Origin: Limisphaerales bacterium
GTDB lineage: Bacteria > Verrucomicrobiota > Verrucomicrobiia > Limisphaerales > SIBE01
Assembly: GCA_044225505.1 (NCBI GenBank)
Contig: JBGAIN010000050.1
Location: forward strand, 1 to 45,424
DNA length: 45,424 nucleotides
Reading direction: 5' to 3'
Shown here: piece by piece, positions 10,314-45,424 of the stretch
Layout: each line of letters opens with the position of its first letter
How positions within the stretch are numbered: position 1 is the first letter of the stretch
Made by a program: the position numbers and the translations under genes
Notes under the pieces: model-generated
What the model was told of the DNA's origin: nothing
What the model saw: the letters and a program-made list of their open reading frames with translations, nothing else
The model's database searches: none

Positions 10314-11705
10314 TCATGGTTTGGGCGCGGCTGGAATAGCGTTGGTTTGGGCGGTGGACTTGGTCGGAAACAATCGTGCCCGCACATCAGCCTCGATCTC
10401 GGGCAACGCGGCCATCTGGACGTTGGATTTTCCTCCGTGCTTATCGTTGTAGTATTCCCACACACGCCGCGCCAGCATCGCGTGGCCGTTGGCGTCGTCG
10501 TCCTGGCCGTAAAACCGCGACTGAAGGTAACGACCAATCAAACCTTCCAGCAGTGCGCGCATCTGGGAGGGATTTGCGCCTTGGATTGTTTCCGTCACCC
10601 CTGCGACAACGAATTCATCCAAGCCTTGCCCTGCGACGACGACATCGGTGAAATTCGTCCGTGCATAGTTGAACCAATAGGCGGCCTCGCTTTGCCGGTT
10701 GTTCGTGTAAAGATGGTAGATTGCACCTTTGAGAAAGTTCTTCTGCCCGCGCGAAATGTACTCGCGCTTATCCGGCTCAGCTTCTCTCATCTCCTCGTAC
10801 GTGGCATTGACCTTGGGAATCATTTCCAGGTTCGGCCCGAAATCAACTCGGTTCGTGCCGCGATGCTCGATGAGCCGCCCGCGAAGGTAAGAGCCTTGCA
10901 TGGTCTGCCACATCACGCGGCGCAACGAGAGCATGTCGAACGTGCTGCCCTTGCAACGGGACAATCCCAACGCCGCCCAATAAATCGCGTGCGACTCGGG
11001 CATACGCCAGTCGAGCGGCCCGTATTTCTCGTCCACCTGCTGCATGAACGCGGGATCGAGTTTGTATTTCTGTCGAAGAGTCGCAGCGCGGCGCCGGGTA
11101 TCCTCCGTCTGTGGATTGAGCAACTGGCTCGGAGTGGCATTGGTGCCGAGCACGTCATACATCTCAACGATCCACTGCTGTTTGTAGTGCTTATGAGCAG
11201 TGTCACTGTATTTGCCCATCTTGTCCTGGAAAATCCACGCCAACTCGCGATGTAACAACGGGTCACGCGGATTGTAACGCAGCCCTTCGTCGCGCAGCAT
11301 TTCCATGCCGCTGCGCACCCAGAGCCAGCGGTCCGACGGCTCGGTGTATTTCACGGAGATGTTCCATGCCATGTTCCACGCGCGCATGGCCCACACTTGC
11401 GAGAATTCTGGCTGCAACTTCGTAATCCAGTCGGACAGCGTGTAGAGTTCGAAATACTTTTCCTCCTGCTGCAGCTGATCGGCACGAATCCATAGCACGT
11501 TGGCCACGATGCCGCGAAATCCGCCGCCCACCGCCGTGACGAACGCCAGTAACGGCGGCGCATTCTGCAATTCCACCGGCAACGTGACCCCCAGTTCCGT
11601 GCGCTGCATTTGCAGGCCGCGCTGGGACAGGAACAGCACCGGCAACATCGCCAATGCCAGCAACGCTAGCAGCCACCTTTTGGCTTGGGGGAAAAGTGAG
11701 TTCAT
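10314..11705 (-). CDS. Membrane-anchored TPR-like protein of the PVC 'IRE'-annotated family (ABC module partner)
   Basis: N-terminal TM helix, then GGFRGIVANVLWIRA...ITKLQPEFSQVW...AWNMAWNISV...RWLWVRSGMEMLRDEGLRYNP. It overlaps the upstream permease (ATGA). Confidence 0.8.
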   Translation of the reverse strand: MNSLFPQAKRWLLALLALAMLPVLFLSQRGLQMQRTELGVTLPVELQNAPPLLAFVTAVGGGFRGIVANVLWIRADQLQQEEKYFELYTLSDWITKLQPEFSQVWAMRAWNMAWNISVKYTEPSDRWLWVRSGMEMLRDEGLRYNPRDPLLHRELAWIFQDKMGKYSDTAHKHYKQQWIVEMYDVLGTNATPSQLLNPQTEDTRRRAATLRQKYKLDPAFMQQVDEKYGPLDWRMPESHAIYWAALGLSRCKGSTFDMLSLRRVMWQTMQGSYLRGRLIEHRGTNRVDFGPNLEMIPKVNATYEEMREAEPDKREYISRGQKNFLKGAIYHLYTNNRQSEAAYWFNYARTNFTDVVVAGQGLDEFVVAGVTETIQGANPSQMRALLEGLIGRYLQSRFYGQDDDANGHAMLARRVWEYYNDKHGGKSNVQMAALPEIEADVRARLFPTKSTAQTNAIPAAPKP

Positions 11706-13090
11706 GCCGCCACCTGTTCCCGCGCCAGTTCACGCCATGTGAAAATGTAGATGCCGGCGACCGCCGTCAGTCCGCCGCCCAACAAAACGATTCGCGCCAC
11801 GGCATTCGCGAGTTGCGCCCAAGTAATCGTCCGTCCCTCGCTCAAGCGCTCAATCGGTGATATCGCCGCCAGGGCCTGAGTGAATCCGTGCAGTACCCGA
11901 TACACCGGCAATGCCACGCCATCCAACGCGCGCGAATTAACCACGCCGGTTTCGGGATCCACTCCCAGCAAGGTCCCGTCCTCCAGCACGCTGCCGAACG
12001 TGTTGCCTGAAAGCGCCGCCAACAAGAGCGTCATGGCAAACAGCGACGCGGTGATGAATGACAGGAAGGAGGCCGCCGCCAATCCCAACGCCGTTAGCAG
12101 GGCCAGCCAGCATGACACCACCAGCAATGCGCGCAGGTAATTTCCCGCGAAGCCGCCTTCCGGAAATAAAACCTCCATCCCATCCTCTATCGGAAACAGC
12201 AACGTGGCGACATCGCGATTCTCGCATTCGATGTGCAACATGCCGTTCGGCCCGATCAACCCTGGCGGAATCACAAACTCATGAAACCCCATGCTCGTGA
12301 GTTGTTTCGGAATGCGGGCGAACCGTCCCGACTCCACGTTGCCGATCACCCAGACGGTCTGGTAACTTATGTCTTGCTTCAGCGATGCCGTGTGAAATTT
12401 CACGCGCAGATGCATGGGCTGACCGGCGAGCCGGTCGCGATGCGCTGACAGGTCGACATCCCACATGCGGCGATAATTGGGCCCGACCGTCTCCTGTCGG
12501 GCGCGAAGTTGATCGCGGATTTCGCGGCGCACCATCGCGGGGTCGAAGTCGGCCAAATTTTCCTCCTGCAACCGCCGAGCGAAAACTCTCTCGACGTCAC
12601 CTTCCAGATCCACTGCCCGTTCACGCGCCGCGCCGCGAGCGACCAAAACCTCCCGCACCAGCAGTTGCTGCTGCTCCGGCGGGAGTTTGCGCGCCTGCCA
12701 TTGCAGCATGGCGTAGGCGATGCCGCCGGCGAGCGACAGCAGGACGAAGTTCAGCGTCATGATGCCCATCCAGCGACCCAGCCAGATTTGCCAGCGCGCC
12801 GCAGGCTTCACGGCAAGCAACTGAAGCTGTCCAGGATCGATGTCGGTCGCGTGAGTGCCGCAGGATATCCACAGGCTCGCGATCCCCAGCAATCCGACAC
12901 ACAGGTAAAGGCTGTAAGTCAACAAGACCTGCGTGAACATGCGCGCCGTGCCGTTGTGCTTAATGAAGAACGGCAGCGACAGCACGCAACCGAGCAGCAC
13001 CACGGCCAAGGCGATCACCACGCGCAACCGCAACGCCGCTTTGACGGTCAGCCACGCGACAGCAAACAGACGTTGGAGTATGGCGTTCAC
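11702..13090 (-). CDS. ABC-2-type permease with a large extracytoplasmic loop
   Basis: Three N-terminal TMs with the LLAVKPAARWQIWLGRWMG motif, a ~190-aa soluble insert and C-terminal TMs ending YIFTWRELA. Confidence 0.85.
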   Translation of the reverse strand: MNAILQRLFAVAWLTVKAALRLRVVIALAVVLLGCVLSLPFFIKHNGTARMFTQVLLTYSLYLCVGLLGIASLWISCGTHATDIDPGQLQLLAVKPAARWQIWLGRWMGIMTLNFVLLSLAGGIAYAMLQWQARKLPPEQQQLLVREVLVARGAARERAVDLEGDVERVFARRLQEENLADFDPAMVRREIRDQLRARQETVGPNYRRMWDVDLSAHRDRLAGQPMHLRVKFHTASLKQDISYQTVWVIGNVESGRFARIPKQLTSMGFHEFVIPPGLIGPNGMLHIECENRDVATLLFPIEDGMEVLFPEGGFAGNYLRALLVVSCWLALLTALGLAAASFLSFITASLFAMTLLLAALSGNTFGSVLEDGTLLGVDPETGVVNSRALDGVALPVYRVLHGFTQALAAISPIERLSEGRTITWAQLANAVARIVLLGGGLTAVAGIYIFTWRELAREQVAA

Positions 13091-14277
13091 GATTTTGGCG
13101 GATTTATCAACGACGATAGTTTCCCCTCTGCCTCTTTCAACGCTTCGGTGTCATCCACCGCCGGAGCGGGCGCGCTCTTTGGTGACGGTGCGGACACCGG
13201 CGCGTCTTGCGTCAGCTCCGCCAGCTTGCCTTCGTCGGGTCTAAGTTCAGCTGAAGTGGCGGCAACCGGTGGGAGAAACTTAGGCGCATGCTCCGTCAAT
13301 CGTTCCAACACCTTTTCCCCGGCGGACGGCGCGGGCTCGGTCGGTTGCAGATATGCCGCCACGCGATTTCCCGCTGTCGCGCCGGAAGTGTCTTGGGCAT
13401 TGGCGCGGGCGCGGTTCACGACGCTGATGAAAAAGCTTTCAAGGTTCTGCATGGGCGTTTCGACGCGCACCGCCTCCGGCGCGGCTTCGCGACGCATCAC
13501 CGCCAGCACTTCCTCGACGAGCGGGCGCGACAACGCAGGCGTGGTGAATCGCAAGGAATCCGGCTTGGCCAGCAACTCGCGCAACGGCCCGGACGATTGA
13601 ATCCGTCCGCCGTAATAGATCACCACGCGATCGCACACGTCCTCGACATCGGCCAGCAGATGGCTGCTCAGGATGATCGTCTTACCGCGGCGCGCGAGGG
13701 CTTGGAGGACATCTTTCACCTCGCGGCAGCCGACGGGATCGAGGCCCGCCGTCGGTTCGTCGAGGATGATCAATTCCGGATCGTTGATCAGGGCCTGCGC
13801 CAGACCGAGCCGGCGTTGCATGCCTTTGGAAAACTCTCCGACCCGGCGTGTGCCCGTCCCTTTCAATCCTACCATCGCAAGCAGCTGCTCCGTGCGCAAC
13901 CGCCGCTCCTCCGCACTCAAAGCGAATACACGCCCGTAGAAATTGAGAGTCTCCGCCGCTGTGAGGTAGCGGTAGAGATACGATTCCTCCGGCAGATAAC
14001 CGATGCGCTCCTTCGTGGCGATGTCGCGCGGCGAACGACCGAGCACCTCGACGTAACCGCTGCTTTGATACAGCAGCCCGAGCAGAATCTTGATGGTGGT
14101 GGACTTGCCCGAGCCATTCGGTCCGAGCAAACCGAAGACTTCGCCGCGGCGGATCTCAAAATCCACGCCATCCACCGCGCGGGCTTTGGGGCGTCCCCAA
14201 ATGTCTTTGAACACCTTGGTCACTCCGCGCACGACAACGACGTTGGCCGCATCTGTGCTTTGCGAATTTGAGCTCAT
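13087..14277 (-). CDS. ABC transporter ATP-binding protein with a C-terminal extension
   Basis: Walker A GPNGSGKS, signature FSKGMQRR, Walker B IILDEP and switch SSH, followed by a ~130-aa Pro/Ala-rich tail. Confidence 0.95.
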   Translation of the reverse strand: MSSNSQSTDAANVVVVRGVTKVFKDIWGRPKARAVDGVDFEIRRGEVFGLLGPNGSGKSTTIKILLGLLYQSSGYVEVLGRSPRDIATKERIGYLPEESYLYRYLTAAETLNFYGRVFALSAEERRLRTEQLLAMVGLKGTGTRRVGEFSKGMQRRLGLAQALINDPELIILDEPTAGLDPVGCREVKDVLQALARRGKTIILSSHLLADVEDVCDRVVIYYGGRIQSSGPLRELLAKPDSLRFTTPALSRPLVEEVLAVMRREAAPEAVRVETPMQNLESFFISVVNRARANAQDTSGATAGNRVAAYLQPTEPAPSAGEKVLERLTEHAPKFLPPVAATSAELRPDEGKLAELTQDAPVSAPSPKSAPAPAVDDTEALKEAEGKLSSLINPPKS

Positions 14278-16241
14278 GCGAGTTGCGGTTTCAATTCTCC
14301 ATCGGTCGGGGCAGACGCACTTTCGGGCGCGGGAATCACTTCGAGTTCCTCACCCTGACGCACGAGACGGGCGCTGTTGAAGACGACGAGCAACGAGCCG
14401 GCGTTGTGCAGGATCGCGGCGACAATCGGATTCAAGTAACCGAGCGTGGCGGCGGTCAGGCCGCCAATGATAAAGAAGACGCCGATGAGAAAATTCTGAT
14501 TGATGACCACGCGCGTCTGGCGCGAAAGCCGGACCAGAAACGGGAGCCGCCGCAGATCGTTGTTCATCAGCGCAATCGTCGCGCTGTGGATTGCCACTTC
14601 GCTCCCCGCCGCGCCCATCGCGATGCCGATGTCGCCGCTGGCCAAAGCCGGAGCGTCGTTCACACCGTCCCCGACGACTGCCACGCGATAGCCCCGTTCC
14701 TTCACCTTCTTCACGTAAGCCACCTTGTCCTGCGGCAAACAATCCGCTGCGACTTCCTCGCAACCGATTTCCTTCGCGACGCGCGCGGCCACCGGTTGCC
14801 GGTCGCCGGTGACCATCGCAATACGTTTGACTCCGGCGGCGTGCAATTCCTCCAATGCCGGCGCGGCCTCGGCGCGCCGTTGGTCCTGAAACCCGATCCA
14901 GCCGATGAACACGCCATCGCGCGCGACGAACAACACGCTGAATCCCTCTGCTTCGTCGAGATCAGCAGCCACCATCGAAGCTTCGGCGACGCCGTTGTCG
15001 CGCAACCATTGCGCCCGTCCTACCAATACGCGCGCGGCTTTCACCTGCGCCGCCACGCCGCGACCGGCAGTTTCCGCGAAGTCCTGCGGTTCAACCAAGG
15101 GAACGCTCGTCTCCGCTGCGACCGATTGCAGCGCCTTAGCCACGGGATGATTGCTGTATTTCTCTGCCGACGCCGCGAGTTGCAGCAGCACGGAAGCGCT
15201 CACTCCTGCGGCAGGAGCAAGGCGCGACACGGAGAGCTTTCCAGTTGTGAGCGTCCCGGTTTTGTCGAAGATGAAGGCATTGATCCGCGCAGCGAATTCA
15301 AGGTCGGCGATGTTCTTGATCAGAATGCCGAGCCGCGCTGCCGCTGAGAGCGCAGCTACCATGGCGCTGGGCGTGGCGAGTACAAAGGCGCAGGGACACG
15401 CCACGACCAGCACGGCGATCACACGGTTGAGATCATGTGTGAATACCCAGATCAAGGCGCCGAGCGTCAACACCAGTGGCGTGTAATAGCTCATGTATTG
15501 GTCCATCAACCGCATGATCGGGAGCTTGGTCTGCTCCGCGGCCAGAATGAGTTCACGCACGCGGCCCAGCGTCGTGTCCTGACCGGCGCGACTGACGCGC
15601 AGCTCCAGGACCCCTGTAAGATTGATCGTGCCGGCGAAGACTTCATCGCCCGGTTTGCGATCCACCGGCAACGATTCGCCCGTGATGCTCGCTTGATTGA
15701 TGCTGCCCATGCCCGATCTGATGACGCCGTCGGCGGGGATGTTGTCGCCGGGTCGCACGCGGACGATGTCGCCCACGGCGAGTTGATGCGTGGCGATTTC
15801 TTCTTCGTCCGTTGCCGTGACGCGTCGCGCTTTCGTGGGCGTGAGTTGAATCAGGGATTCAATGGAAGCCCGCGCACCTGCGGCAGTGCGGGTTTCGATA
15901 ATTTCGCCGATCAACATGAAGAACGAAACAACGCCGGCCGTTTTGTAATCACCCGTGGCGAACGAGGCGAGCACCGCCAGACTGACGAGTTCGTTGATGC
16001 TGACTCGGCCGTTGAACAAGTCACGCCCGGAAGTCAGGAGGATGGGCGAGGCCAGAATCAAAGCTCCGACGAAGGAACTGATGCCGGCGATGGCCGCTCC
16101 GCGCGGGAAGAACCATTCGACGAAATAGGCGTTTACGATGAACAGGACGCCGAACAAAGTCTGTTGCAGGCGCGCGGTGGATTCGCCGGGGACGGCGGAC
16201 GCGGTTTCGGTATCGCGATTCAGAAGCGTGGTGACTTGCAT
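14274..16241 (-). CDS. Heavy-metal P1B-type ATPase (copy 1)
   Basis: Motifs TGES, CPC, DKTGT, SNHP, GDGVNDAP and HNAGS in the last TM. No N-terminal metal-binding domain. The start MQVTT matches the paralog. Confidence 0.95.
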   Translation of the reverse strand: MQVTTLLNRDTETASAVPGESTARLQQTLFGVLFIVNAYFVEWFFPRGAAIAGISSFVGALILASPILLTSGRDLFNGRVSINELVSLAVLASFATGDYKTAGVVSFFMLIGEIIETRTAAGARASIESLIQLTPTKARRVTATDEEEIATHQLAVGDIVRVRPGDNIPADGVIRSGMGSINQASITGESLPVDRKPGDEVFAGTINLTGVLELRVSRAGQDTTLGRVRELILAAEQTKLPIMRLMDQYMSYYTPLVLTLGALIWVFTHDLNRVIAVLVVACPCAFVLATPSAMVAALSAAARLGILIKNIADLEFAARINAFIFDKTGTLTTGKLSVSRLAPAAGVSASVLLQLAASAEKYSNHPVAKALQSVAAETSVPLVEPQDFAETAGRGVAAQVKAARVLVGRAQWLRDNGVAEASMVAADLDEAEGFSVLFVARDGVFIGWIGFQDQRRAEAAPALEELHAAGVKRIAMVTGDRQPVAARVAKEIGCEEVAADCLPQDKVAYVKKVKERGYRVAVVGDGVNDAPALASGDIGIAMGAAGSEVAIHSATIALMNNDLRRLPFLVRLSRQTRVVINQNFLIGVFFIIGGLTAATLGYLNPIVAAILHNAGSLLVVFNSARLVRQGEELEVIPAPESASAPTDGELKPQLA

Positions 16242-16247
16242 GGGCAC

Positions 16248-17321
16248 TCAGGGATTGGCGACGGTGTTAGTCTTGGCGCGCGCGGGTTCGCGGTTGAGTT
16301 GCAGGCGCACCTGATGGGGGTGGCCGGGGTTTGCGCGCGGTAGTAGAAACGTGTCCTGCGCCCCGGCGACCACCGTTTCCATTGCTTCCGCCAACAGGCG
16401 GCGCTTAAACAACGTCGGCTCAGAGCGGTAGTGCGGCAGTTGATCGGTGAAATATTTCGCCTGACTGGCGACCGCCAGGACGAGCTTGTTACTCGCGGTG
16501 ATGCCTTCGTTCAATAGCGCCTGCGCCTGGCCGCCCGCCTTCAGGGTGACTTCGTTGGCGTAACCGCGTGCTTCGTTGATCTTCTGGCTCCTTTCCTGTT
16601 CCGCCCCGAGCACGGCTTCGAACGCTGCACGCACATCCACCGGCGCGACGACCTGCACTTCGAAGGGGTCGAGCGTGACACCGAGTTGATGCCGCGCGAT
16701 GCCCTCGCTAATCTCCGCCAATACGGCGTCGCGAAACACCAGCTTGTCGCGATAAATCGCAGACTCGGCGGTGACGCCTGAGGCGGCGTGAATCAACGCG
16801 CTGTTGAGCAGCGATTGAAGGACACTCGATGCGCTGCGAAACCGGAAGGCGTATTGCCACGAATTGCTGATGCGATACTTCAACGTGGCTCGCGCGTGGA
16901 AGATATTGCCATCGCCCGCCAGCAGATAACCATCCGCACCCGGCGTGAGCGTGCCGCGCGGAGGCGGTTCTTCGCCGCGTGCCTGTTGCTCGGGCGTCAC
17001 GGCATACCAGCCGATGGTCGAGGTAACCGTGTGACTCTCCCCGGCGGGTACGCGCACGATTTCGTCGACCGGATAAGGAAACGCCCAGTGCAAGCCGGGC
17101 TTCAACACCTGCGCCTCGCCCGTGCCGACCGGTTTGCCAAAGCGGAGCACGATGGCGACTTCGTTCGGTTCGACCGCGAAGACGCCGGAGAAAATGACGA
17201 CAAGTGCTACCAGCGCCATCAGCACCTTGAGGATCTGCAAGCTGCTGCGCAACGCGTCGTTCAACGCCCGTGAGCCGGCGTCTTCCTGCGGTGGAGCGGG
17301 AGGTTTGTCTGCAATGTTCAT
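16248..17321 (-). CDS. hflK: SPFH-domain protein, HflK-like
   Basis: TM, then SGVFAVEPNEVAIVLRFGK...PGLHWAFPYPVDE, and the coiled-coil PVDVRAAFEAVLGAEQERSQKINEARGYAN. Confidence 0.85.
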   Translation of the reverse strand: MNIADKPPAPPQEDAGSRALNDALRSSLQILKVLMALVALVVIFSGVFAVEPNEVAIVLRFGKPVGTGEAQVLKPGLHWAFPYPVDEIVRVPAGESHTVTSTIGWYAVTPEQQARGEEPPPRGTLTPGADGYLLAGDGNIFHARATLKYRISNSWQYAFRFRSASSVLQSLLNSALIHAASGVTAESAIYRDKLVFRDAVLAEISEGIARHQLGVTLDPFEVQVVAPVDVRAAFEAVLGAEQERSQKINEARGYANEVTLKAGGQAQALLNEGITASNKLVLAVASQAKYFTDQLPHYRSEPTLFKRRLLAEAMETVVAGAQDTFLLPRANPGHPHQVRLQLNREPARAKTNTVANP

Positions 17322-18247
17322 GGCTTTGGGACCGCGGGTGTCTGGGAGGTTGCGGTAGGATTCAACGCCTCGGCTTGGAGCAGATTGAACGGGGGCGTCT
17401 GCGGATCGAGCACGAGCGTACTGCGTTCCTTGAGGGAATTACCGAGCGCATTCAACTGAATGAGAAAGCTCGCGAGTTCTGGTTCTTGCTGGAACACGGC
17501 GAAGTTCTTCGCAGCTTCAGCTTCGGCCGCGCCGCGCAGTCTCATCGCCTCCGCGTCGGCGCCAGCGAGGGTTTCCTGCTTCACCCGATCGGCCTCGGCA
17601 CGGATGCGAATGGCCTCGGCCTCGCCTTCGCTTTGGAACTGTTTCACGAGCCGTTGCCGTTCCGCGCGCATTCGGTCGAACACCTTGCCAGTGATGCTTT
17701 CGGGTAGCCCCAGTTGCTTGACGCCGAGCATAGTGACGCGGATGCCGTAGTTCGTGGCGGTTTTGCTTTGCACGAGCGCGAGCATCTCGGCCTCGGCCTG
17801 CTGGAGTTTCACCCGCGATCTGTTGGTAGAGATCAACTCGCCGAACGCGTGATGACCGATCACGGCATTCTTCGCGTCGCGCACCACCCCTTCCAACGCT
17901 TGTTCAGCGCGGGTCATATCGCCTTGGGCAAACCGTTCGATGAACAGTCGCGGATCGGCGATCTGCCAGGCCGTGAACACGCTGACGATGAGGCTGCGAC
18001 CGTCCGCCGTAGTAGTCTGCTCGAACTTGCGCTCGAAGGTCTGCTGGCGATTGTCGAATGTGTAAACCTTGTTGGCAGGCCACGGCCAACGGAGATAAAG
18101 CCCGGGATCAGTAATGGCGCGATCAAAGCGTCCGAACGCGGTGACGACCGCCACTTCCGTCTGCCGCACCTGGAACAGGAAGAGCACGGAAACGAAGATG
18201 CCCAGAACGAGCGCGGCGATAATGACAGTGAGACGAAGTTTCTTCAT
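17318..18247 (-). CDS. hflC: SPFH-domain protein, HflC-like
   Basis: FQVRQTEVAVVTAFGRF...PGLYLRWPWP...FDNR, LGLPESITGKVFDRMRAER and SEGEAEAIRIRAEAD. Start taken at MKKLR (18247). Confidence 0.87.
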   Translation of the reverse strand: MKKLRLTVIIAALVLGIFVSVLFLFQVRQTEVAVVTAFGRFDRAITDPGLYLRWPWPANKVYTFDNRQQTFERKFEQTTTADGRSLIVSVFTAWQIADPRLFIERFAQGDMTRAEQALEGVVRDAKNAVIGHHAFGELISTNRSRVKLQQAEAEMLALVQSKTATNYGIRVTMLGVKQLGLPESITGKVFDRMRAERQRLVKQFQSEGEAEAIRIRAEADRVKQETLAGADAEAMRLRGAAEAEAAKNFAVFQQEPELASFLIQLNALGNSLKERSTLVLDPQTPPFNLLQAEALNPTATSQTPAVPKP

Positions 18248-18251
18248 GGGA

Positions 18252-20120
18252 TTATTGGCGGCCCGTCGGGGGCACTTGCACATCGAGCAGATCCGTGCGG
18301 AGTTTGTCCTCGAAATTGAGCCAGAACTGCTCCTGATTGTTGGTCGTGGTCAGAATGAATTTGCGGGGCAAGGCCAGTCCGGCCATGAGCATCTCGTGAT
18401 AATGCCACTGGTAATAGACCGCCGGGGCGGCATGGAACGCGGTGCGCTGGCTCTGAAACCGGTTCGCCTGCGCCTCGGCCTTGGCAACGCGCGTGGTTGC
18501 ATTAGCTCGCTGGGTCAACACCCTCCGCTCGCCTTCCGCCCGCGCCCGCGGCAACACCTCGGCGCGATACGCTTCGGCGTTCAGCACGCGCGTCTCGCGT
18601 TCCTGCGTGGCCGAGACGACCGCCTCATAAGCCTCCGCGATTTGTACCGGCGGATGCACATCCTGCAGACCGACGAACATGACCTCCACACCGAGGTTTT
18701 GGGCGTCGGCCTGTTGCTGGATCAACGTGCGCAACTCCGTGGCGGCCTGCTGCCGACCGGAAGCCATCACGTCCTCCAGATCCACGCTGACGAGATAACG
18801 GGTGACCTCGCGTGTCGCGAGCAACGGCAGCATCCGCTCGCCCGCCGCGAACGATCGTGCCCAAGCGAGCAGATTCGTCACACGATACTGGACGGGAATA
18901 CTCACCGTCAGCAGGTTCACCGGCACGGCTTGCTCAACCTCGTTCGTTGCGCCGTCCCCGGCTTCGCGACTGGCGACGAGCAGGTTGAACTCCTCTTTGT
19001 AATGCGCGCGCGTCCAGAGCAGCGTATTTTCCTTCTCCAGCTTCGGGTCGGGCACGAAGCCGACATTGAAGCTGAGCACTTCGGCGGTCGGATAAACGTG
19101 TGCGCGATCAATCGGCCACGGCCATTTGAAATGCAGCCCGGGGGCGAGCACGGGACGCGATTGCACCGGGCGACCGAAGCGTTCGAGCAATGCCTCTTCG
19201 TGGGGTTCGAGGATGACGGTGGTTGAGGATAGCCAGACGAGGAGCAGTTGCACCAAGACTAGCCCGGCAATCGCCTGTTGCAGGTAGCGATAGAACCACG
19301 TCTCGGAAACCTTGAACCCGAATTGGTAATCAAGCGTTTGCGCCGCCGTGCGAACCAATCCTTCCGGCTGGCTCAACAACCCGAGCACACGGCTCTCGTA
19401 AACCGGCTGCGCCTGCTTGCCCTTGACGCGCGGCCGATAGATCTCCAGCACGAGATTTGCCGCCGTTTCCACCGCGACCAGCGCAAGCAATGCAACCAAT
19501 CCGCGCGCAATCCAAAGGTCGGCGCGCGGCACATTGAAGTAATTTGCCGCTGCCGCACCCGCCACGAGCGCAGACAACATCGCGCCCAGTAACAGATAGC
19601 TCGCCGGAGGCCGGGCCAGACGATGGCCTTCGTGTCGCGCCAGACCGGCGGCGTATTTGCCGAGCACGAAGAACAGCAACGCCTGCAAACTGAACCACGC
19701 GAGCACGAGCATGGTTTTGCCGGGGAATGGCGGTGTGGCCGTACCGAGCTGCCGGTAAAACCACCAGGTCAGAAATCCTTCCGCCACGAAGAGCAGCGCG
19801 GTCAGCCCGGGAATGAAGAACCGTTCGAAATGTTCCCGCGTGCGCCCGGCCCGCAGGTTCTCCGGCTTTGCCTGGAACAAAGCGCCGCCGTTCGCGGCGC
19901 TTTGCAGTTCTTCGAACTCGCGACGCTCGCGCACTTCACGGTCGCGCAGCCAGAGTTGAATCGTGCTGAACGCGGCGATCACCGTGCCGATGACCGCAAA
20001 GACGGCGGCCACCTGCCCGGACAGCGTCGCGCCTGCGCGCGCCACGCACCACGCGGCCACAGCCCCGATTAGCAGCGCGGACAGGTTCACGAAGGAGTGG
20101 GATGAGGAGGATGTTTCCAT
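18252..20120 (-). CDS. Polytopic membrane protein fused to an HflK-like SPFH domain
   Basis: About 7 hydrophobic segments in the first ~295 aa, then ILEPHEEALLERFGRP...PGLHFKWPWPID...LQDVHPP...AYEAVVSA. Confidence 0.85.
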   Translation of the reverse strand: METSSSSHSFVNLSALLIGAVAAWCVARAGATLSGQVAAVFAVIGTVIAAFSTIQLWLRDREVRERREFEELQSAANGGALFQAKPENLRAGRTREHFERFFIPGLTALLFVAEGFLTWWFYRQLGTATPPFPGKTMLVLAWFSLQALLFFVLGKYAAGLARHEGHRLARPPASYLLLGAMLSALVAGAAAANYFNVPRADLWIARGLVALLALVAVETAANLVLEIYRPRVKGKQAQPVYESRVLGLLSQPEGLVRTAAQTLDYQFGFKVSETWFYRYLQQAIAGLVLVQLLLVWLSSTTVILEPHEEALLERFGRPVQSRPVLAPGLHFKWPWPIDRAHVYPTAEVLSFNVGFVPDPKLEKENTLLWTRAHYKEEFNLLVASREAGDGATNEVEQAVPVNLLTVSIPVQYRVTNLLAWARSFAAGERMLPLLATREVTRYLVSVDLEDVMASGRQQAATELRTLIQQQADAQNLGVEVMFVGLQDVHPPVQIAEAYEAVVSATQERETRVLNAEAYRAEVLPRARAEGERRVLTQRANATTRVAKAEAQANRFQSQRTAFHAAPAVYYQWHYHEMLMAGLALPRKFILTTTNNQEQFWLNFEDKLRTDLLDVQVPPTGRQ

Positions 20121-20121
20121 T

Positions 20122-21069
20122 TCAAGTCAGGTCGCGGTCTTCAAACAACAACGCCGCCACCGCCAGCGTCAGCACGAGATACGCAGCCGCGTAACCGGTC
20201 GCACGCCCGACGTAGCTCCAGGGAACACCGCCTTCGCCACCAAGCCGGTCAGCCATCCAGAACACCTGCCAGTTCGGCAGCACGGTGTGGAAGGTCGTCG
20301 CCAGCCACGCCCCGTTACCAAAGAGGTAGTCCGACAGCAAACCGAGCAGGAATAGTCCCGAACAGATGAGCATTGTGGGCATCAGCGTGAGTCGTGTGGT
20401 GCACACGAGCGCGAGCGCGGCCAGCAATAGCAACGCGAGCCATACCAACAGCCCGGCAGGAATCAACCGCCAGTCCACCGCCACGCCGAATGATTGAGCC
20501 GCGCCGGTGCGATCAAAGAAGTTCGTCAGCACGAACGCCAGCGTCATAGTGCCCACCAGCGCGACCGAGGCGTCCGCCAGGAAAGGCCGGTGCGCGAGAT
20601 AATTCGTCGCCGCCCCGATGAGGAACGCGGCCAGAATTCCGCCGCCAAAGATTCCAATGGCCACCCAATCCCACGAACCATAGGCGTCGAACGCCATGCG
20701 GCTCGCGATCAACGCCGCGAGCAGGCCGACGTAGGTTTGCAGGCCGAGCGCACTCGCTAGTCCCAGAAACTTTGCCAGCAGAAAACGCGTTCTCCCAACC
20801 GGCTTGGCCAGCAGCGACAGCGCCGTGCCGGACCGGAGTTCCTGTGCGATGGACAGCGACGCGCTCAGGATGGCGTTAAGAAACCCTGCGAGGAGCAACA
20901 CCGAAAGCGCGCTCGTTTTGACCAGGCGCGCCTCTTCGCCAAGGCCAAAATACGAAACATTCGCCAGCATCCCGATCGCCACGACTGTCCCCGTGAGCAG
21001 CACGAGGTACAACGGCTGCCGCAGTAGTTCGCGGAGGCTGTTCCAGGAGATTTGAAGAAAGGAATTCAT
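20122..21069 (-). CDS. ABC-2-type permease
   Basis: Multi-TM protein with SIAQELRSGTALSLLAKPVGRTRFLLAKFLG, ending LFEDRDLT. Confidence 0.85.
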   Translation of the reverse strand: MNSFLQISWNSLRELLRQPLYLVLLTGTVVAIGMLANVSYFGLGEEARLVKTSALSVLLLAGFLNAILSASLSIAQELRSGTALSLLAKPVGRTRFLLAKFLGLASALGLQTYVGLLAALIASRMAFDAYGSWDWVAIGIFGGGILAAFLIGAATNYLAHRPFLADASVALVGTMTLAFVLTNFFDRTGAAQSFGVAVDWRLIPAGLLVWLALLLLAALALVCTTRLTLMPTMLICSGLFLLGLLSDYLFGNGAWLATTFHTVLPNWQVFWMADRLGGEGGVPWSYVGRATGYAAAYLVLTLAVAALLFEDRDLT

Positions 21070-21078
21070 GGTCAAAGA

Positions 21079-21897
21079 TCACGGAGTGAGGTGAGAGGCA
21101 CGATAAAAGCAGTTTGCATTGGAGTTTGGCTGCGTCCATGTCCAGACGGACTCCCGCAACCACAAATTTGTTAGAGTGGCCCAAGAGGTGAGATTCCTCG
21201 ATATATCCACCGACAATGGCACGTTGCCTTCCGTGGCCACTCGAAGCTTCTGCCAACCGTTGTCTGCACTCAGCTCCAGCCGTGGTGGTTCGATAGCCTG
21301 GACTTGGAATTTGAAAACCGTCACTGTGCTGTTCGTGAATCTCCCGTCAACCAAAGTTCCCTCTGTTCGCAAGCCTAGTTCATACAAACCTGGTCGTGTG
21401 AATGCCCAATTTACGTGTACGTGCCCCCCCGGATACGAGAGGGGCAGCGCATCGGAGAATGCCAACCCATCCCTAGTAGCGATGTGGAGATTTACCTCGC
21501 CAAACGGCCCAAAACTGTAAATCGCAAAATGCCCCGGCCCGGAATAGGTGGCGAGCCGGACTCGTATCTGGCCGCCCAGAAAAGAGCCTTGGCCTTGTGT
21601 GCCGAAGCCTAGAAAGGGCAGTGCCGGGGCCTGCACTTCTGGTAGTATCCAGACGGGATCGCCTGCAGCGCCAAGCGCATTTGTCAGCACCTGGTTATTC
21701 GGAATTTGCCCGCGCGCCGCGCTGATTACGACCGGGACATAATCGGTCGCTGCATACGAGCCGGAGTCAAAATCATACCAGAAAATATCCCAGCCTGCCG
21801 CGGTGGTGTAGGCAGTCTGAATGTGGATATGCTGTGCCTGCGCGGTGAATCCGAAGATCAACGCCAACACCCCGAGACAAATCCGGAAGCATTTCAT
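21079..21897 (-). CDS. Secreted choice-of-anchor M (TIGR03769-like) domain protein with F[YF]R tail
   Basis: Signal peptide ending AQA, then QHIH, VWILPEVQ...LPFLGFG, GPGHFAIY and HVHVNWAFTRPGLY. It ends NCFYRA. Confidence 0.8.
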   Translation of the reverse strand: MKCFRICLGVLALIFGFTAQAQHIHIQTAYTTAAGWDIFWYDFDSGSYAATDYVPVVISAARGQIPNNQVLTNALGAAGDPVWILPEVQAPALPFLGFGTQGQGSFLGGQIRVRLATYSGPGHFAIYSFGPFGEVNLHIATRDGLAFSDALPLSYPGGHVHVNWAFTRPGLYELGLRTEGTLVDGRFTNSTVTVFKFQVQAIEPPRLELSADNGWQKLRVATEGNVPLSVDISRNLTSWATLTNLWLRESVWTWTQPNSNANCFYRASHLTP

Positions 21898-21976
21898 CAA
21901 ATATATTCCAGCGCAAACAGCGGTCGCCAGTCACGAGACCGATTGATGGCGACCGCTTGATGGACTTGCCCGTGGG

Positions 21977-22990
21977 TCAAGGTCGATGCATGCGGAAGAA
22001 CTGCATCAAGCCCGTGCGTTTGACGGTGTAATACCGTCTAAAGGTCTGCTGCGAAGCCTCGCCCGTGCCACTCTCCTCCGCCGTAGATTGGAGGTCGGTG
22101 TAGTCGGTCCACGGGCCGCTGGCCGTGGGGGCGTATTGCAGGACATACCCATCCGTTACGAGGGGAAGGGTGATTTTCACGCTCTCCTCGATGACGAGCG
22201 TCGGGGCCTCAGGAACCCGGAAGTCCAAATAGAACACTCCACTCTCCGTCGCGGCGGAATTGGCCGCATTCAGATCCACAAGTTTGAACGCGACTGTGTA
22301 GGTGCCGGGAGCCGCATCGACTGCCGTGGAGAATAACGGCCAGGCTTCCCAAGAATCACCCTCACCAAGCACAAGCCGGTCGCCGGCGTTATTCAGCAGG
22401 CTGGCATTGGTGCTGACACCGATACTTAAACCTGGCGTCTTTGAAATAAGTTCGAGCGCAGGCTTCGTCCCGGCGAGCGAGTTCGTGAATCTGTTCGCGT
22501 TACCGCGAAAACTAAACCACTCGCTTGAGTTGGTGGGGAACTGTTGAAAATACGAGGTAGGACGCAATCGTCGGTCGCTGTAGTGCTCGTCGGTGCGAAT
22601 ACTCACAAGCCGTCCGGCAAAAGCGGGAAGCGTCGCTGGCGCACCAACGAGCGTGAGCGGAGGCAACTGGTAATAGGTTTCCGGGATGCGGTTGCCGGAG
22701 TTGCTATTGGTGGCTACCGCTGCATTGGCTGGGCCGGAATATGTCCAAATGCCAATTCCGTGGTAATGATTATTCTCAAAGGAAGTATCGAAGTGATGTG
22801 CGTAAAGGAAGCTCAACCGTCCGTAGTTCGGGTTTGGCAGACCATCATAGACACCTCCCGAAAGTGTTGGGAGGTTGTCGATACCAATGACGTTGGGAAC
22901 GTAGTTATCAGCACAGGCGTTGTGTAGCGTGGCACTACCGACTGTGAGCGCCGCAGCGAATGCAAGTTGTTTTAGAGGGTGGCGTGTCAT
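21977..22990 (-). CDS. All3515-family (Zur-repressed in Anabaena) secreted protein with an F[YF]R tail in place of PEP-CTERM
   Basis: IGIDNLPTLSGGVYDGLPNPNYGRLSFLYAH...NHYHGIG...NRIPETYYQLPPLTL...PGTYTVAFKLVD...ESGVFYLDFRVPE, ending QFFRMHRP. Start chosen at MTRH; alternative at 23050. Confidence 0.8.
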   Translation of the reverse strand: MTRHPLKQLAFAAALTVGSATLHNACADNYVPNVIGIDNLPTLSGGVYDGLPNPNYGRLSFLYAHHFDTSFENNHYHGIGIWTYSGPANAAVATNSNSGNRIPETYYQLPPLTLVGAPATLPAFAGRLVSIRTDEHYSDRRLRPTSYFQQFPTNSSEWFSFRGNANRFTNSLAGTKPALELISKTPGLSIGVSTNASLLNNAGDRLVLGEGDSWEAWPLFSTAVDAAPGTYTVAFKLVDLNAANSAATESGVFYLDFRVPEAPTLVIEESVKITLPLVTDGYVLQYAPTASGPWTDYTDLQSTAEESGTGEASQQTFRRYYTVKRTGLMQFFRMHRP

Positions 22991-23245
22991 ATTTGTATCA
23001 TTAATTACTCTCAGTGTCTTGGGTGTTTTGTTTAACAGCATTTTCGTCACGATGTCGCATTACCTTTGAGGTCTGTCGCCGGGCAGGGGATCGTTGAGAG
23101 CGAGGCTGGCCCGGCATCTTTCCTTCCAGCGAAGGAAATATCGAGAGAACATGGATATGTTCGCTAAAGCAGCTGAAATTGGATTCGTAGCAACAGGTCG
23201 CATAAACTGCTACGGCATGATCATGGAGAGGCTGTGGATCGATGA

Positions 23246-24262: not shown

Positions 24263-24287
24263 GGCTTCTTCAGCAATGCTCAGTTTG

Positions 24288-24393: not shown

Positions 24394-24427
24394 ATGCCAA
24401 AATGAGAATTGCTCATGGCCTTTTCTA

Positions 24428-27193: not shown

Positions 27194-27202
27194 ACGGAAC
27201 CG

Positions 27203-28746: not shown

Positions 28747-28756
28747 GGCGCTATGC

Positions 28757-41683: not shown

Positions 41684-42661
41684 GTGCCCATGGAAACAGC
41701 GAATCTGTGTTCGAGAAAGGGATCCGTGTCTGCAGAGGCCAACGAGAGGTGCCGACCCTGGGCCATGTTCTCGCAAATTCTCAGATCCAGGTCCGCGAAA
41801 GAAATAGAAGACTCCTTAATCGTTGGCACGTCTCGAACCACGCCTGCGCTGATTGAGATTCAAACGACCTGCCCAACGCCGTGGCTTTTCAGCAAGCTCC
41901 TTGTTTTCTGCGGCGCCATATTCCTTGGGTTAATGACAGGATATTTTGGATTTCACAACGAGGCACTTCTGCCAGGTCTAATTCTGATCGGGACACTTTC
42001 TGTGCCAGTAGTCATGACAATTCTGTTCTTCGAGTTCAATTCTCCGAAGAACGTTTCGCTTTATCGGGTGGCAATCTTTTTCTCCGTAGGCGGGCTTCTC
42101 TCCGTGCTCTTTTCGATACTGGGAGGCGATGTCGGACACTTGCATTGGTGCGGGCCCTGGAGCGCCGGAGTCACCGAAGAGGTGGCAAAGGTTATTGCCT
42201 TGATCCTGGTTGGGCGCGGCACGCGCTACAAGTACATGTTAAACGGCATGTTATTTGGAGCGGCAGTCGGGGCGGGCTTTTGCTCGATTGAGAGAGCCGG
42301 ATTAGCCCTGCGCGCCCTCCAGGCAAACGGAGTGAGCGCCATGTTGGAAAGCATCGCGTTGTCGGCCGTCTTCACGCCTCTGACTCACGTGGCGTGGACA
42401 GCCATGACGGGAGCCGCGCTATGGAGCGCCAAGAAGACGGACCTCGCTCCGGGGTTCGCCTGCATGGCAGAGCCACGGTTCCAGAAAGTACTTTTGCTGG
42501 CAATTCTGCTGCACACCTCGTGGAATCTCTACTGTCCTGAACCACCCTTCCAACCGAAGGAGATCATGCTGGGCGCCGCCGCCTGGGTCGCCGGCTGCGG
42601 GATTGGTCCGCGATGGATTCTCCTGGTGTCCGGAGGAGCAGGCCCAAGCTCTATCCCATAA
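41684..42661 (+). pseudogene. prsW: PrsW-family intramembrane metalloprotease, apparently eroding
   Basis: TEEVAK, GAAVGAGFCSIE, HVAWTA and LHTSWN. The expected C-terminus (GLVRDG...EEQ) is in another frame after ~42600, and the N-terminal region is interrupted by stops. Confidence 0.65.
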
Positions 42662-42699
42662 GGCACGGCCGCATCCACTCGCACGCCTCAGCTCTTTGC

Positions 42700-43080
42700 C
42701 ACGAGCACTTCCAAGAATCCGTGATCGTCACAATGCTCTCCGTGGGGAGCAGTTCATTCAGCGCACCCGCCGCATGAATTTTTCCCGCGCAATAAATCAC
42801 CACGGGGGCGCACACGTCCTCCACCTCGGCAAGCAGATGGCGGCTCATGATACGGTCTTGCCGCGCCGGGCAAGCGCGAGAATTAAATCCTTCACTTCGC
42901 GGCCCCAATCGGATCACGCCCTGCCGTCGGTTCGTCGAGAATCACGAGGTCAGGATCGTTGATGAGTGCCTGTGCGTCGCGTCCCCAAAATCCTTGAAGA
43001 CTTTCGTCAGCCCGCGCACGGCTCCGACGTTTTCTGCCGTGGCAGCCAGCGACGGCGAAGAAAGTTGCTTTTGTAAAGTC
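42700..43080 (-). pseudogene. Internally deleted, frameshifted ABC ATPase (paralog of 13087-14277)
   Basis: [11 protein letters not shown] is joined almost directly to [18 protein letters not shown], so Walker A and the signature are missing. Shifted fragments [16 protein letters not shown] and HLLAEVEDVC...VVIY follow. Confidence 0.85.
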
Positions 43081-43083
43081 AGA

Positions 43084-45060
43084 TTAGCAGCAAGTTGTCT
43101 GCGGTTGCAGTTGGGATGAAACTGGCTCGCCTTCTGGCGGGTCGATGAGCGGAGCGTGCGCTTCCAACCCTTCGCCTTGCCGCACGAGGCGCGCGCTATT
43201 GAACACCACCAGCAGCGAACCGGCGTTGTGCAGAAGCGCCGCCACGATGGGATTCAAATAGCCGAAGGTTGCCAGCGTCATGCCGCCGATGATGAACATT
43301 ACGCCGATGATGAAGTTTTGGTTGATGACGTTGCGCGTGGCACGCGACAGATTCACCAAGAATGGAAGGCGGTGAAGGTCGTTGTTCATCAGCGCAATGG
43401 TTGCGCTGTGAATCGCCACTTCGCTGCCCGCCGCGCCCATCGCGATGCCGATGTCGCCGCTGGCCAGCGCCGGCGCGTCATTCACCCCGTCGCCGATGAC
43501 GGCGACGCGATAGCCGCGCGCCTTCATCTGCTTCACAAATTCCACCTTGTCCTGCGGGAGGCAATCGGCCGCGACTTCCTCGCAACCAATTTCACGCGCC
43601 ACGCGCGCCGCCACGGGCTGGCGATCGCCCGTGACCATCGCAATGCGCTTCACTCCCGATTCCTTCAATTCGACCAGCGCGGCCGCAGCCTCGGCGCGGG
43701 TTTCATCTTTGAGACCGATCCAGCCGACACACTGGCCGTCGCGCGCGACGAAAATCAGGCTGAACCCTTCCGTTTCGTTCAAGTCCACCGAGTTCAGGAA
43801 ATCACCGCCGACACCGTCGTCCTTGAGCCATTGCGCGCGGCCCACTAAAACTCTCGCGCCATTGATTTCCGCCCGCACCCCGCGTCCGGCCGTTTCGAAA
43901 AAATCCTTCGGTTCAACCAGCGGGACGCCGGATTCGTCCGCAAGTTGCGCGAGCGCTTTGGCAGTCGGGTGGTTGCTGTATTTTTCGGCGGACGCGGCGA
44001 GCTGAACCAGTTCCGCAGGTTTGGTTTCACGAAGCGGCATCAGGCGGCTGACCGCCAGTCTACCGGTGGTGAGCGTGCCGGTTTTGTCGAACACGAAGGC
44101 GTTGATGCGCGCGGCGAGTTCGATGTCTGCAATATTTTTTATTAGCACGCCAAGCCGCGCGGCGGCGGAAAGCGCGGCGACCATCGCTGTAGGCGTGGCG
44201 AGAATAAACGCGCACGGGCACGACACGACCATCACGGCGATGACGCGGTTCAGGTCCTTGGTAAAAATCCAGACGAGCGCAGCGAGCGTGAGCGTGAGCG
44301 GCGTGTAGTAACTCATGTATTCGTCCATCAGCCGCATGATGGGCAGCTTGGTTTGCTCGGCGGCAAGGATGAGTTCGCGCACTTTGCCCAGCGTGGTATC
44401 CTGTCCGGCGCGGCTGACACGAATTTCCAAGACGCCGGTGAGGTTGATTGTGCCGGCGAAAACCTCGTCGTCCGTCTTTTTATCCACTGGCAATGATTCG
44501 CCAGTAATCGTCGCCTGATTGATGGAACTGACCCCGCTGACGATGACGCCGTCCGCCGGAATATTGTCGCCGGGGCGGGCGCGAATAACGTCGCCCACTT
44601 TCAAATCTTTCATGGAGATTTCCTCTTCGCCTGTAGCGGTGACGCGCCGGGCTTTCGTGGGAGTAAGCTGAATGAGCGATTCAATCGAAGCCCGCGCGCC
44701 GGCAGCGGTGCGGGTTTCAATGATTTCGCCGATGAGCATGAAAAACGAAACGACGCCGGCCGTCTTGTAATCGCCGCTGGCAAAACTGGCCAGCACAGCG
44801 AGGCTCACAAGTTCATTGATGCTCACCACGCCGGTGCGCAGATCCTTGAGGGAATTCCAGACGATGGGAGAGCCGAGGAGCAACGCGCCGATGAACGCGC
44901 TGACGCTGCCGATGGCCTGGCCTTTAGGAAAAAACCATTCCACGAGATAGGCGTTGAACACGAAGATCAGGCCGATGAACGCCTGTTGCAGATGCGAAGG
45001 CGATGAATCAGGAATGATAGCGCCATCTTCATTGCGGCTGGCAAAGGTTGTGACTTGCAT
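43084..45060 (-). CDS. Heavy-metal P1B-type ATPase (copy 2)
   Basis: TGES, CPC, DKTGT, SNHP, GDGVNDAP and HNAGS, with long stretches identical to copy 1. Confidence 0.95.
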   Translation of the reverse strand: MQVTTFASRNEDGAIIPDSSPSHLQQAFIGLIFVFNAYLVEWFFPKGQAIGSVSAFIGALLLGSPIVWNSLKDLRTGVVSINELVSLAVLASFASGDYKTAGVVSFFMLIGEIIETRTAAGARASIESLIQLTPTKARRVTATGEEEISMKDLKVGDVIRARPGDNIPADGVIVSGVSSINQATITGESLPVDKKTDDEVFAGTINLTGVLEIRVSRAGQDTTLGKVRELILAAEQTKLPIMRLMDEYMSYYTPLTLTLAALVWIFTKDLNRVIAVMVVSCPCAFILATPTAMVAALSAAARLGVLIKNIADIELAARINAFVFDKTGTLTTGRLAVSRLMPLRETKPAELVQLAASAEKYSNHPTAKALAQLADESGVPLVEPKDFFETAGRGVRAEINGARVLVGRAQWLKDDGVGGDFLNSVDLNETEGFSLIFVARDGQCVGWIGLKDETRAEAAAALVELKESGVKRIAMVTGDRQPVAARVAREIGCEEVAADCLPQDKVEFVKQMKARGYRVAVIGDGVNDAPALASGDIGIAMGAAGSEVAIHSATIALMNNDLHRLPFLVNLSRATRNVINQNFIIGVMFIIGGMTLATFGYLNPIVAALLHNAGSLLVVFNSARLVRQGEGLEAHAPLIDPPEGEPVSSQLQPQTTCC

Positions 45061-45063
45061 ACA

Positions 45064-45424
45064 TCAAGGTTGGTTGGTGTTGGTCTGAAGTGCTTTTGCG
45101 GGTTCCCGGTTGAGCTGCAGGCGAATCTCGCGCGGGGAATTCCTAGGATTAGGTGGGAGAAAGAATTTATCCTGCGCGCCGGCCATCACGGTTTCCAAAG
45201 TCTGGTTCAAGACGCGGCGGGCGAACAACTGGGGATTGCGCTCGAACTGCGGCAACTGGTCGTTGAATGCTTTCGCCTCCGCGCCGACAGCGAGCACCAA
45301 TTGATTGCTGCTGGTGATGCCGCCGCTGACAATCGCCTGCGCTTCACCAACGGCCTTGAGGGTGACCTGATTGGCGTAGGCTTGCGCTTCGTTGATTTTC
45401 TGGCTGCGTTCCTGCTCCGCCGCG
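45064..45424 (-). CDS. hflK: 3' part of an HflK-like SPFH protein (paralog of 16248-17321), runs off the window end
   Basis: AAEQERSQKINEAQAYANQVTLKA...GAQDKFFLP...IRLQLNREPAK aligns with the C-terminus of the 357-aa HflK-like protein. Confidence 0.85.
   Translation of the reverse strand, partial: AAEQERSQKINEAQAYANQVTLKAVGEAQAIVSGGITSSNQLVLAVGAEAKAFNDQLPQFERNPQLFARRVLNQTLETVMAGAQDKFFLPPNPRNSPREIRLQLNREPAKALQTNTNQP

Follow-up and report, generated by a model that had tools for sequence, protein, structure and literature searches.

The 45,424-nucleotide contig JBGAIN010000050.1 of a Limisphaerales bacterium (assembly GCA_044225505.1), hereafter the window, carries at positions 10314-21075 one copy of a conserved membrane module. 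The core of this module consists of four genes, here designated T, C, K, and P. T, C, and K encode proteins of the SPFH superfamily, and P encodes a P1B-type ATPase. A dedicated association of the SPFH trio with the pump is likely, judging from the co-conservation of the genes, the placement of the trio in orthogroups of its own, the occurrence of a canonical HflC besides C in at least nine genomes, the lack of a linked ftsH, and the occurrence of natural P1B-SPFH fusion proteins. An initial annotation of this stretch had proposed that a dedicated hetero-SPFH cage surrounds the metal pump or the ABC complex and forms a metal-trafficking compartment. Of this proposal, the association is likely; the cage, the metal, and the direction of transport we infer. 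SPFH rings (HflK/C, prohibitin, stomatin, and flotillin) are found in all domains of life. To our knowledge, the FtsH protease is the sole bacterial SPFH client understood in structural detail. In the module, gene order across phyla and natural fusions tie three ring subunits to one transporter. This transporter would be a well-defined client on which the effect of an SPFH enclosure could be tested.

Gene content of the module

The window is a whole contig (C116 of genome G000). Positions 10314-21075 are filled by eight minus-strand open reading frames (ORFs), whose junctions range from a 32-base overlap to a 1-base gap. In order of transcription, with lengths in amino acids (aa), they are as follows.

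20122..21075, minus strand: perm1, ABC-2-type membrane protein of 317 aa that heads the module; sub-threshold matches to ABC2_membrane_2/3/4
18252..20120, minus strand: T, polytopic N-terminal domain (about seven helices) followed by an HflK-like SPFH domain, 622 aa; Band_7 at residues 303-517
17318..18283, minus strand: C, HflC-like SPFH protein with a single N-terminal helix, 321 aa; TIGR01932 136.2 bits against a cut-off of 134.4
16248..17321, minus strand: K, HflK-like SPFH protein with a single N-terminal helix, 357 aa; TIGR01933 127.2 bits against a cut-off of 159.4
14274..16247, minus strand: P, P1B-type ATPase, 657 aa; E1-E2 ATPase and HAD domains; TIGR01525 558.9 bits against a cut-off of 346.25
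13087..14277, minus strand: A, ABC ATPase, DrrA/GldA-like, with a low-complexity tail, 396 aa; ABC_tran E value 7e-31
11702..13090, minus strand: perm2, ABC-2-type permease with a large loop between helices, 462 aa; assigned from ESM Atlas clusters
10314..11705, minus strand: I, membrane-anchored alpha-helical repeat (TPR-like) protein, 463 aa; assigned from its structure model

The initial annotation had given these eight genes in the same order with overlapping or few-base junctions, and the ORFs bear this out. Its further statements that the window holds no ftsH and no hflX agree with an FtsH search of the window, which returned no match, and with a domain scan of window ORFs, among which no hflX-type domain turned up. 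The CPC and HNAGS motifs that it read in the pump are located at residues 284-286 and 614-618 of P, and its 7TM-SPFH fusion is T. The label 'IRE/TPR' given to I is fair as regards TPR; IRE found no support.

With a gathering score of 23.6 for PF01145, the scores of T (63.1 bits), C (97.5 bits), and K (66.9 bits) place all three proteins in the SPFH / Band 7 superfamily. T was the only member of the trio to be modelled. Its model (predicted local distance difference test score, pLDDT, 80) has the SPFH fold, with a long coiled-coil helix (residues 492-564) after the alpha/beta domain. The best PDB matches of the SPFH part were the HflK/C cryo-electron microscopy chains 7vhq, 9cz2, and 9paw (E value 3e-13), and the model also matched stomatin and prohibitin. 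About seven predicted helices precede this domain. They belong to no known family, with no Pfam match worth naming at E ≤ 10 and Atlas matches of 0.81-0.83, which are under the level that counts.

The ABC2_membrane matches of perm1 scored 22-25 bits, under the cut-off. No Pfam match was obtained for perm2; in the ESM Atlas, Verrucomicrobiota and Planctomycetota clusters of ABC-2 permeases are similar to it (0.98-0.99). The permease membership of perm1 and perm2 is accordingly drawn from weak or feature-based hits. The top NCBIfam models of A were drrA and GldA, both under cut-off. Taken together, A, perm1, and perm2 have the make-up of an ABC-2 exporter, namely an ABC ATPase with ABC-2 permeases. 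I had no family match in Pfam or NCBIfam; its model (pLDDT 84.5) is all-alpha, with one N-terminal membrane helix followed by helical repeats. A PDB search with this model brought up generic TPR or solenoid structures only, none of them at E ≤ 0.001, and thus no specific structural relative.

Conservation of gene order

Conservation was assessed with T as the probe. A total of 401 genomes was sampled from the phylum Verrucomicrobiota, and matches to T at E ≤ 1e-10 were counted; T was matched in 182 of them. Two sets of loci were then compared: a phylum-wide set of 40 loci from many families, selected solely by the T match, and a close-relative set of 80 further loci obtained by a profile search of genome contigs.

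Of the phylum loci, 37 extend at least 2.2 kb downstream, and in 36 of these C and K followed T; 36 extend 4.3 kb or more, and C-K-P directly followed T in 32 of them. The exceptions are L062, in which K was missed by tblastn yet is present as an ORF, L065 and L067, in which the pump lies just upstream, and L048, in which no pump was found within 13.5 kb. Among close relatives, C-K-P followed T in all 66 loci with enough DNA. These counts exclude a chance neighbourhood, and the co-conservation anticipated for the SPFH genes and the CPC/HNAGS pump is real.

The outer genes vary more. perm1 is directly 5' of T in 73/73 close relatives and in 11/40 phylum loci. Where at least 8.8 kb of downstream DNA was available, the full eight-gene form was found in 42/54 close relatives and 10/27 phylum loci, and a five-gene form without A, perm2, and I in 10/54 and 8/27, respectively; the remainder were intermediate. 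Roughly one in five to one in three of the module-bearing loci that extend far enough downstream lack the ABC-2 part. Upstream neighbours were varied, unrelated housekeeping genes at the 31 loci inspected, and on this ground the unit is taken to start at perm1.

The module is common. A profile of T retrieved 3340 clusters at 50% identity with E ≤ 1e-30, and the best 150 were near full length. It is also found outside the phylum. The best plasmid match to P lies on the Rhizobium tumorigenes plasmid NZ_CP117260.1, where a 672-aa 'protease modulator HflK', two SPFH genes, and a P1B ATPase stand in the same order with overlapping ends. When the 672-aa protein was used as the query, 1854 proteins were retrieved at E ≤ 1e-20, among them proteins of 648-716 aa named for Pseudomonas aeruginosa and P. 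syringae. Identity to P of about 40% is by itself no sign of the module, as plasmid matches of this kind in Enterobacter and Shinella had no SPFH neighbours.

Relationship of the SPFH trio to HflK and HflC

A tree of 41 SPFH proteins was built, with E. coli HflK and HflC as the only canonical pair. T and C each formed a supported clade (97/93 and 97/95, respectively) that takes in the Rhizobium rows. K formed one clade among the Verrucomicrobiota rows, and the placement of the Rhizobium K was weak. E. coli HflC was sister to the whole C clade (100/97) and fell outside it; E. coli HflK joined neither the K nor the T clade. Against the equivalog models, C scored just above the hflC cut-off, whereas K and T (109.5 bits) fell below that for hflK (159.4). 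When the hflC model was run over the 401 genomes, two classes were obtained: full-length matches of 201-289 bits, and matches of about 85-125 bits beside T. Both classes occurred, on separate contigs, in at least nine genomes (G004, G008, G223, G247, G284, G337, G349, G373, and G388). By sequence, T, C, and K are paralogues that stand apart from canonical HflKC, in three orthogroups of their own.

The E. coli HflK/HflC-FtsH complex (PDB 7vhp/7vhq, 7wi3, 9cz2, and 9paw) is among the nearest known systems. The T model shares its SPFH fold and long coiled-coil helix, C and K share the single N-terminal helix, and paired genes in both cases imply a hetero-oligomer. The module differs in having three subunit types, one of them polytopic, and in having a P1B ATPase rather than FtsH as the linked client. 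It also lacks the linkage to hfq or hflX.

The P1B-type ATPase and P1B-SPFH fusion proteins

P has the motif CPC in transmembrane helix 4 (TM4), DKTGT at residues 328-332, and HNAGS in TM6. A domain scan found no N-terminal metal-binding domain. The pumps linked to the module, the Rhizobium one included, formed a single clade with a support of 100 in the Shimodaira-Hasegawa-like approximate likelihood ratio test (SH-aLRT). It is separated both from the clades of ZntA and CopA and from the other P1B ATPases of the genome, and its branching mirrors that of T, C, and K. Its members have NQN in TM5 and a nearly invariant His in TM6, where ZntA has Asp and CopA has Met.

The motifs of P were compared with those of described subgroups. 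P1B-2 (ZntA-type) pumps have a Lys in TM5 and Asp-x-Gly in TM6, and P1B-1 (CopA-type) pumps have Tyr-Asn in TM5 and Met-x-x-Ser-Ser in TM6 (PMC4932525). In the alignment with E. coli ZntA, His614 of P occupies the position of the ZntA Asp and the TM5 Lys is missing; in that with E. coli CopA, P reads NQN in TM5 and HNAGS in TM6. P therefore has the motifs of neither type. For the P1B-6-like pump CtpC, N-X18-H-N-X-(S/T) is given between TM5 and TM6 (PMC13460109). In a comparison of motifs only, the H-N element is present (HNAGS in P, HNVST in the Rhizobium pump), and the Asn-to-His spacing is 28 or 7 instead of 18.

CPC is found in TM4 of 32 of the 41 aligned module-linked pumps. The pumps without one or both TM4 Cys that keep the TM6 His are those of L034, L047, L049, L050, L056, L064, L068, L069, and L070. 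This loss is odd, as it would sit badly with one thiophilic metal substrate family-wide.

A search of longer proteins with P gave 78 matches. All 18 fusion clusters checked (1151-1226 aa, 33-39% identity to P) contain PF00122, PF00702, and PF01145. The SPFH domain is C-terminal in the five scanned for this feature, and in all 18 it is closest to HflK, T, or K and not to HflC. The pump parts of the 18 keep CPC and the TM6 His. The metagenome fusions (for example P0002, P0004, and P0012) thus resemble the module in combining a CPC-type P1B pump that has the TM6 His with an HflK-like SPFH domain. They differ from it in being one polypeptide with the SPFH domain at the C-terminus and in reading HE in TM6, where module pumps read HN. 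The fusion pumps form their own clade, apart from the module pumps; therefore, a related pump has been joined to an SPFH subunit independently of the module. Such an independent fusion supports a physical association of pump and SPFH protein.

Parallels in Pseudomonas aeruginosa and mycobacteria

In the accessible literature, our search found no description of an SPFH-P1B system. The claim of the initial annotation that no characterised system has this composition is nevertheless too strong and needs a Pseudomonas caveat: by published gene order, PA2439-PA2435 of P. aeruginosa is a match to the module, with three HflK/HflC-family genes ahead of the P1B ATPase HmtA in the cluster PA2439-PA2434.

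This cluster is induced by zinc depletion, and in a znuA mutant the expression of PA2434, PA2435 (HmtA), and PA2437-PA2439 (HflC/HflK family) is raised 5.6 to 14.4-fold (PMC4542158, Table 2). The hmtA locus is described as beginning with PA2439, and Zur shifts the promoter of this gene (PMC8531726). A listing of the Zur regulon includes PA2437-39, which correspond to PA14_33110/33080/33070 (PMC9431628, table) and are PaFlo7/6/5. A triple deletion of PaFlo5/6/7 gave subtle phenotypes only, in media that were not zinc-limited; in the accessible text of that paper, 'hmtA' appears nowhere and zinc limitation is unmentioned (PMC13086221). HmtA is cited in a review as a Zn/Cu importer (PMC8456098). 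Within the accessible literature, no study of a scaffold-pump link at the P. aeruginosa locus was found. The module bears on the debate over whether and how a P1B ATPase such as HmtA works in zinc acquisition.

P. aeruginosa and P. syringae have T-family proteins of 648-716 aa. The 716-aa P. aeruginosa protein, putatively PA2439, shows 48% identity to the Rhizobium T. It shows only 25% identity to the T of the window; the BLASTP alignment of the two (E value 7e-20) extends over residues 224-504 and takes in the conserved loop that precedes the last helix. Unlike the window, the P. aeruginosa locus has no perm1, ABC ATPase, perm2, or I reported there.

A second parallel is offered by mycobacteria. 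The PacL-CtpC/G/V 'effluxosomes' also have a dedicated membrane scaffold gene beside a P1B ATPase, and the PacL scaffold is required for the stability and clustering of the pump, as for PacL1-CtpC of M. tuberculosis (PMC13460109). CtpC has CPC and an H-N-x-(S/T) motif (PMC13460109), where P reads CPC and HNAGS. Unlike the SPFH trio, PacL proteins are small DUF1490/DUF6110 proteins, and they respond to metal excess. A Pfam scan of the eight proteins and flanking ORFs gave no match to DUF1490/DUF6110.

Zinc-related genes and the upstream region

In the window, the module lies downstream of genes of a zinc-limitation type.

21079..21900, minus strand: choice-of-anchor-M surface protein; NF038134 87.8 bits (cut-off 55); lies upstream of perm1 with 3 bases between them
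21977..23050, minus strand: ZepA/all3515-family Zur-repressed PEP-CTERM protein; NF040463 204.4 bits against a cut-off of 75

Upstream of zepA, on the same strand, are a WD40 gene, two cobW/COG0523 genes, more choice-of-anchor-M proteins, and two further transporters. The whole island (21079-40404, minus strand) comprises the ZepA-family protein, three choice-of-anchor-M proteins (one of 1661 aa), two COG0523 GTPases, a WD40 protein, a TPR protein with an ABC-2 permease and an ABC ATPase, and a MacB/FtsX-type permease. The junction of the module with the choice-of-anchor-M gene is not an assembly artefact, because contigs from two other studies (8237 and 8418 bases) extend across it; they cover T, perm1, the anchor-M gene, and zepA, the last in full or for the most part. 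In Anabaena, zinc uptake is mediated by ZepA, an exoprotein under Zur repression whose inner-membrane partners have yet to be found (PMC10957091). The position of the module behind zepA suggests it as a candidate for the missing 'downstream partner' of ZepA (PMC10957091).

The region upstream of perm1 was compared in 82 loci. No perfect palindrome with a spacer of 0-7 was enriched. With longer spacers, the only enriched motif was TGTGC-N8-GCACA beside TTTGCAA, found in 18 of the 82 loci (among L073-L148) and in the module copy on contig C97 of the same genome (G000:C97:21663). It was considered as a metal operator and dropped, as it also precedes four prepilin-type genes (about 300 aa) in the genome; a common promoter element or a site for a common regulator is more probable. 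The pattern TTACG...CGTAA occurred in only 3 of the 82 upstream regions. Upstream of the ZepA-family gene itself (23051-23245), two palindromes, GAACAT-N4-ATGTTC and TTTCCTTC-N4-GAAGGAAA, are possible operators. A promoter/terminator consensus scan of 9.5-26.5 kb gave one promoter-like site against 4.6 expected and was uninformative.

Proposed mechanism and alternative explanations

C and K have basic N-termini before their single helix; T has an odd number of helices and a conserved basic loop (YRPR...) before the last one. From the helix counts and basic stretches, the SPFH domains of T, C, and K are predicted to be periplasmic and their N-termini cytoplasmic, as in HflK/C. We propose that T, C, and K may co-assemble into an HflK/C-type ring in the inner membrane and that this ring would hold the P1B pump as its client. 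The polytopic domain of T, including its conserved cytoplasmic loop, could act as an adaptor. perm1, A, perm2, and I might constitute an accessory, optional ABC-2 exporter. This favoured reading, in which the SPFH trio forms a ring with a dedicated P1B pump as client, is held as a whole with slightly more belief than doubt.

More weakly, we infer that this organism uses the module to handle zinc when the metal is scarce. The role is proposed from gene context, as the window's eight-gene copy (copy 1) follows the zepA, choice-of-anchor-M, and COG0523 genes, and by analogy, as the P. aeruginosa locus of matching published gene order is in the Zur regulon. Transport could be import, as claimed for HmtA, or an export that metallates periplasmic proteins.

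Several observations weigh against this account. The TM4 Cys are lost in 9 of the 41 aligned module-linked pumps, which read VPA, IPS, IPC, LPC, or CPV. The genome of the window, which is 95% complete, has no canonical HflK/HflC pair, so that K and C could also serve FtsH there. In 120 other loci, zepA and choice-of-anchor-M genes were never adjacent to the module, and cobW was adjacent once (L146). No Zur-type operator was recognised upstream of the module. HmtA is likened to P on the ground of published gene order. In one study, hmtA was not repressed after zinc addition, and a role in copper was suggested (PMC8531726). A complex prediction for T residues 1-305 with P, made with alignments, scored 0.02 against a mark of 0.32 and speaks neither for nor against binding.

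Among the alternatives, the one that survives best is a metal-efflux platform, in which the SPFH ring clusters or stabilises an exporting P1B pump and the ABC-2 part adds capacity, in the manner of PacL-CtpC and without relation to zinc scarcity. P1B ATPases are exporters as a rule, and elsewhere the module has no link to zinc-uptake genes. The scaffold-dependent PacL1-CtpC of M. tuberculosis provides an example, and the CPC and H-N-x-(S/T) described for CtpC recall the CPC and HNAGS of P (PMC13460109). We nevertheless consider efflux unlikely. Copy 1 begins 3 bases after a run of zinc-scavenging genes that share its strand, the P. aeruginosa locus that matches in published gene order is induced by zinc depletion and not by excess (PMC4542158), and no ArsR, MerR, or CzcR-type repressor was found beside the module in the 31 loci whose upstream genes were scanned.

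Quite unlikely, in our judgement, is that K and C (with T) are simply the HflK/HflC of this lineage, modulating FtsH, with the pump adjacent through FtsH-controlled turnover or for no mechanistic reason. The score of C above the hflC equivalog cut-off (136.2 against 134.4 bits) and the sister position of E. coli HflC to the C clade (100/97) fit such a role. The genome encodes FtsH on contigs C144 and C59 and lacks any further HflK/HflC-like pair, the remaining SPFH genes being FloT-like (C153), FloA-like (C94), and divergent pairs on C303 and C132. In addition, PA2437-39 are annotated as FtsH modulators (PMC9431628). On the other side, canonical HflC and module C coexist in the nine or more phylum genomes listed above, and P. 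aeruginosa likewise has a canonical hflK-hflC locus besides its separate trio PaFlo5/6/7 (PMC13086221). K and T fall under the hflK cut-off, an FtsH search of 122 loci (2.03 Mb) gave no match, and the natural fusions link the SPFH domain to a pump, not to a protease.

A more elaborate form of the ring proposal would have T, C, and K form a closed, periplasm-facing vault of HflK/C type over an area of inner membrane with P and the ABC-2 exporter in it. Zinc captured outside the cell by ZepA and choice-of-anchor-M proteins would be concentrated in the sealed periplasmic nano-compartment so formed and passed to an importing pump. We regard this as improbable; if true, it would be a miniature metal-trafficking organelle and the first SPFH cage with a transporter client. 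Least probable, and in our view very unlikely, is that the ATPase moves no transition metal and that the task of the module, carried out mainly by the SPFH ring and the ABC-2 part, is the handling of a different substrate or membrane remodelling: the loss of TM4 Cys in several lineages with the module intact, the lack of a cytoplasmic metal-binding domain in P, and the lipids, glycans, or peptides that ABC-2 exporters usually move would suit it, whereas CPC in 32 of 41 module-linked pumps and in the 18 fused forms checked, the nearly invariant TM6 His, and the heavy-metal subfamily as best NCBIfam model speak against it. So does the uptake of Zn and Cu reported for HmtA (cited in PMC8456098).

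Other module copies and neighbouring genes

The genome that carries the module of the window has further copies of it. The initial annotation had noted that HflK, ATPase, and ABC genes recur in the same order at 42.7-45.4 kb. The ATPase there is intact; the HflK-like gene is a piece cut by the contig end, and the ABC gene is a remnant. This copy is partial and decaying.

43084..45060, minus strand: second P1B ATPase of the window, 658 aa, part of the partial third module copy; 76% identity to P
45064..45423, minus strand: second HflK-like gene, of which the final 119 codons precede the contig end that truncates it; 62% identity to K residues 239-353
42651..43083, minus strand: ABC ATPase gene remnant with an internal deletion and frameshifts; three-frame reading beside A and tblastn pieces

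The ATPase at 43084-45060 has CPC and is the nearest row to P in the tree. A PrsW-family protease gene (41684-42661, opposite strand) stands where perm2 and I would be.

Contig C97 has a complete paralogous copy, with all eight genes in unchanged order and identities of 42-69%. The module clade has a fourth, solitary pump in this genome, on C330 (82259-84301) beside TrmO-like and radical-SAM genes; it has no SPFH genes nearby and nests in the clade as a recent duplicate. The single genome thus holds two full copies, one decaying copy, and one solo pump.

At the downstream end of the module in the window, a HipA-type kinase gene (HipA_C, Couple_hipA; 8531-9862, plus strand) converges on it. Sequence near-identical to module DNA 14274-21075 occurs in activated-sludge and bioreactor metagenome contigs from several studies.

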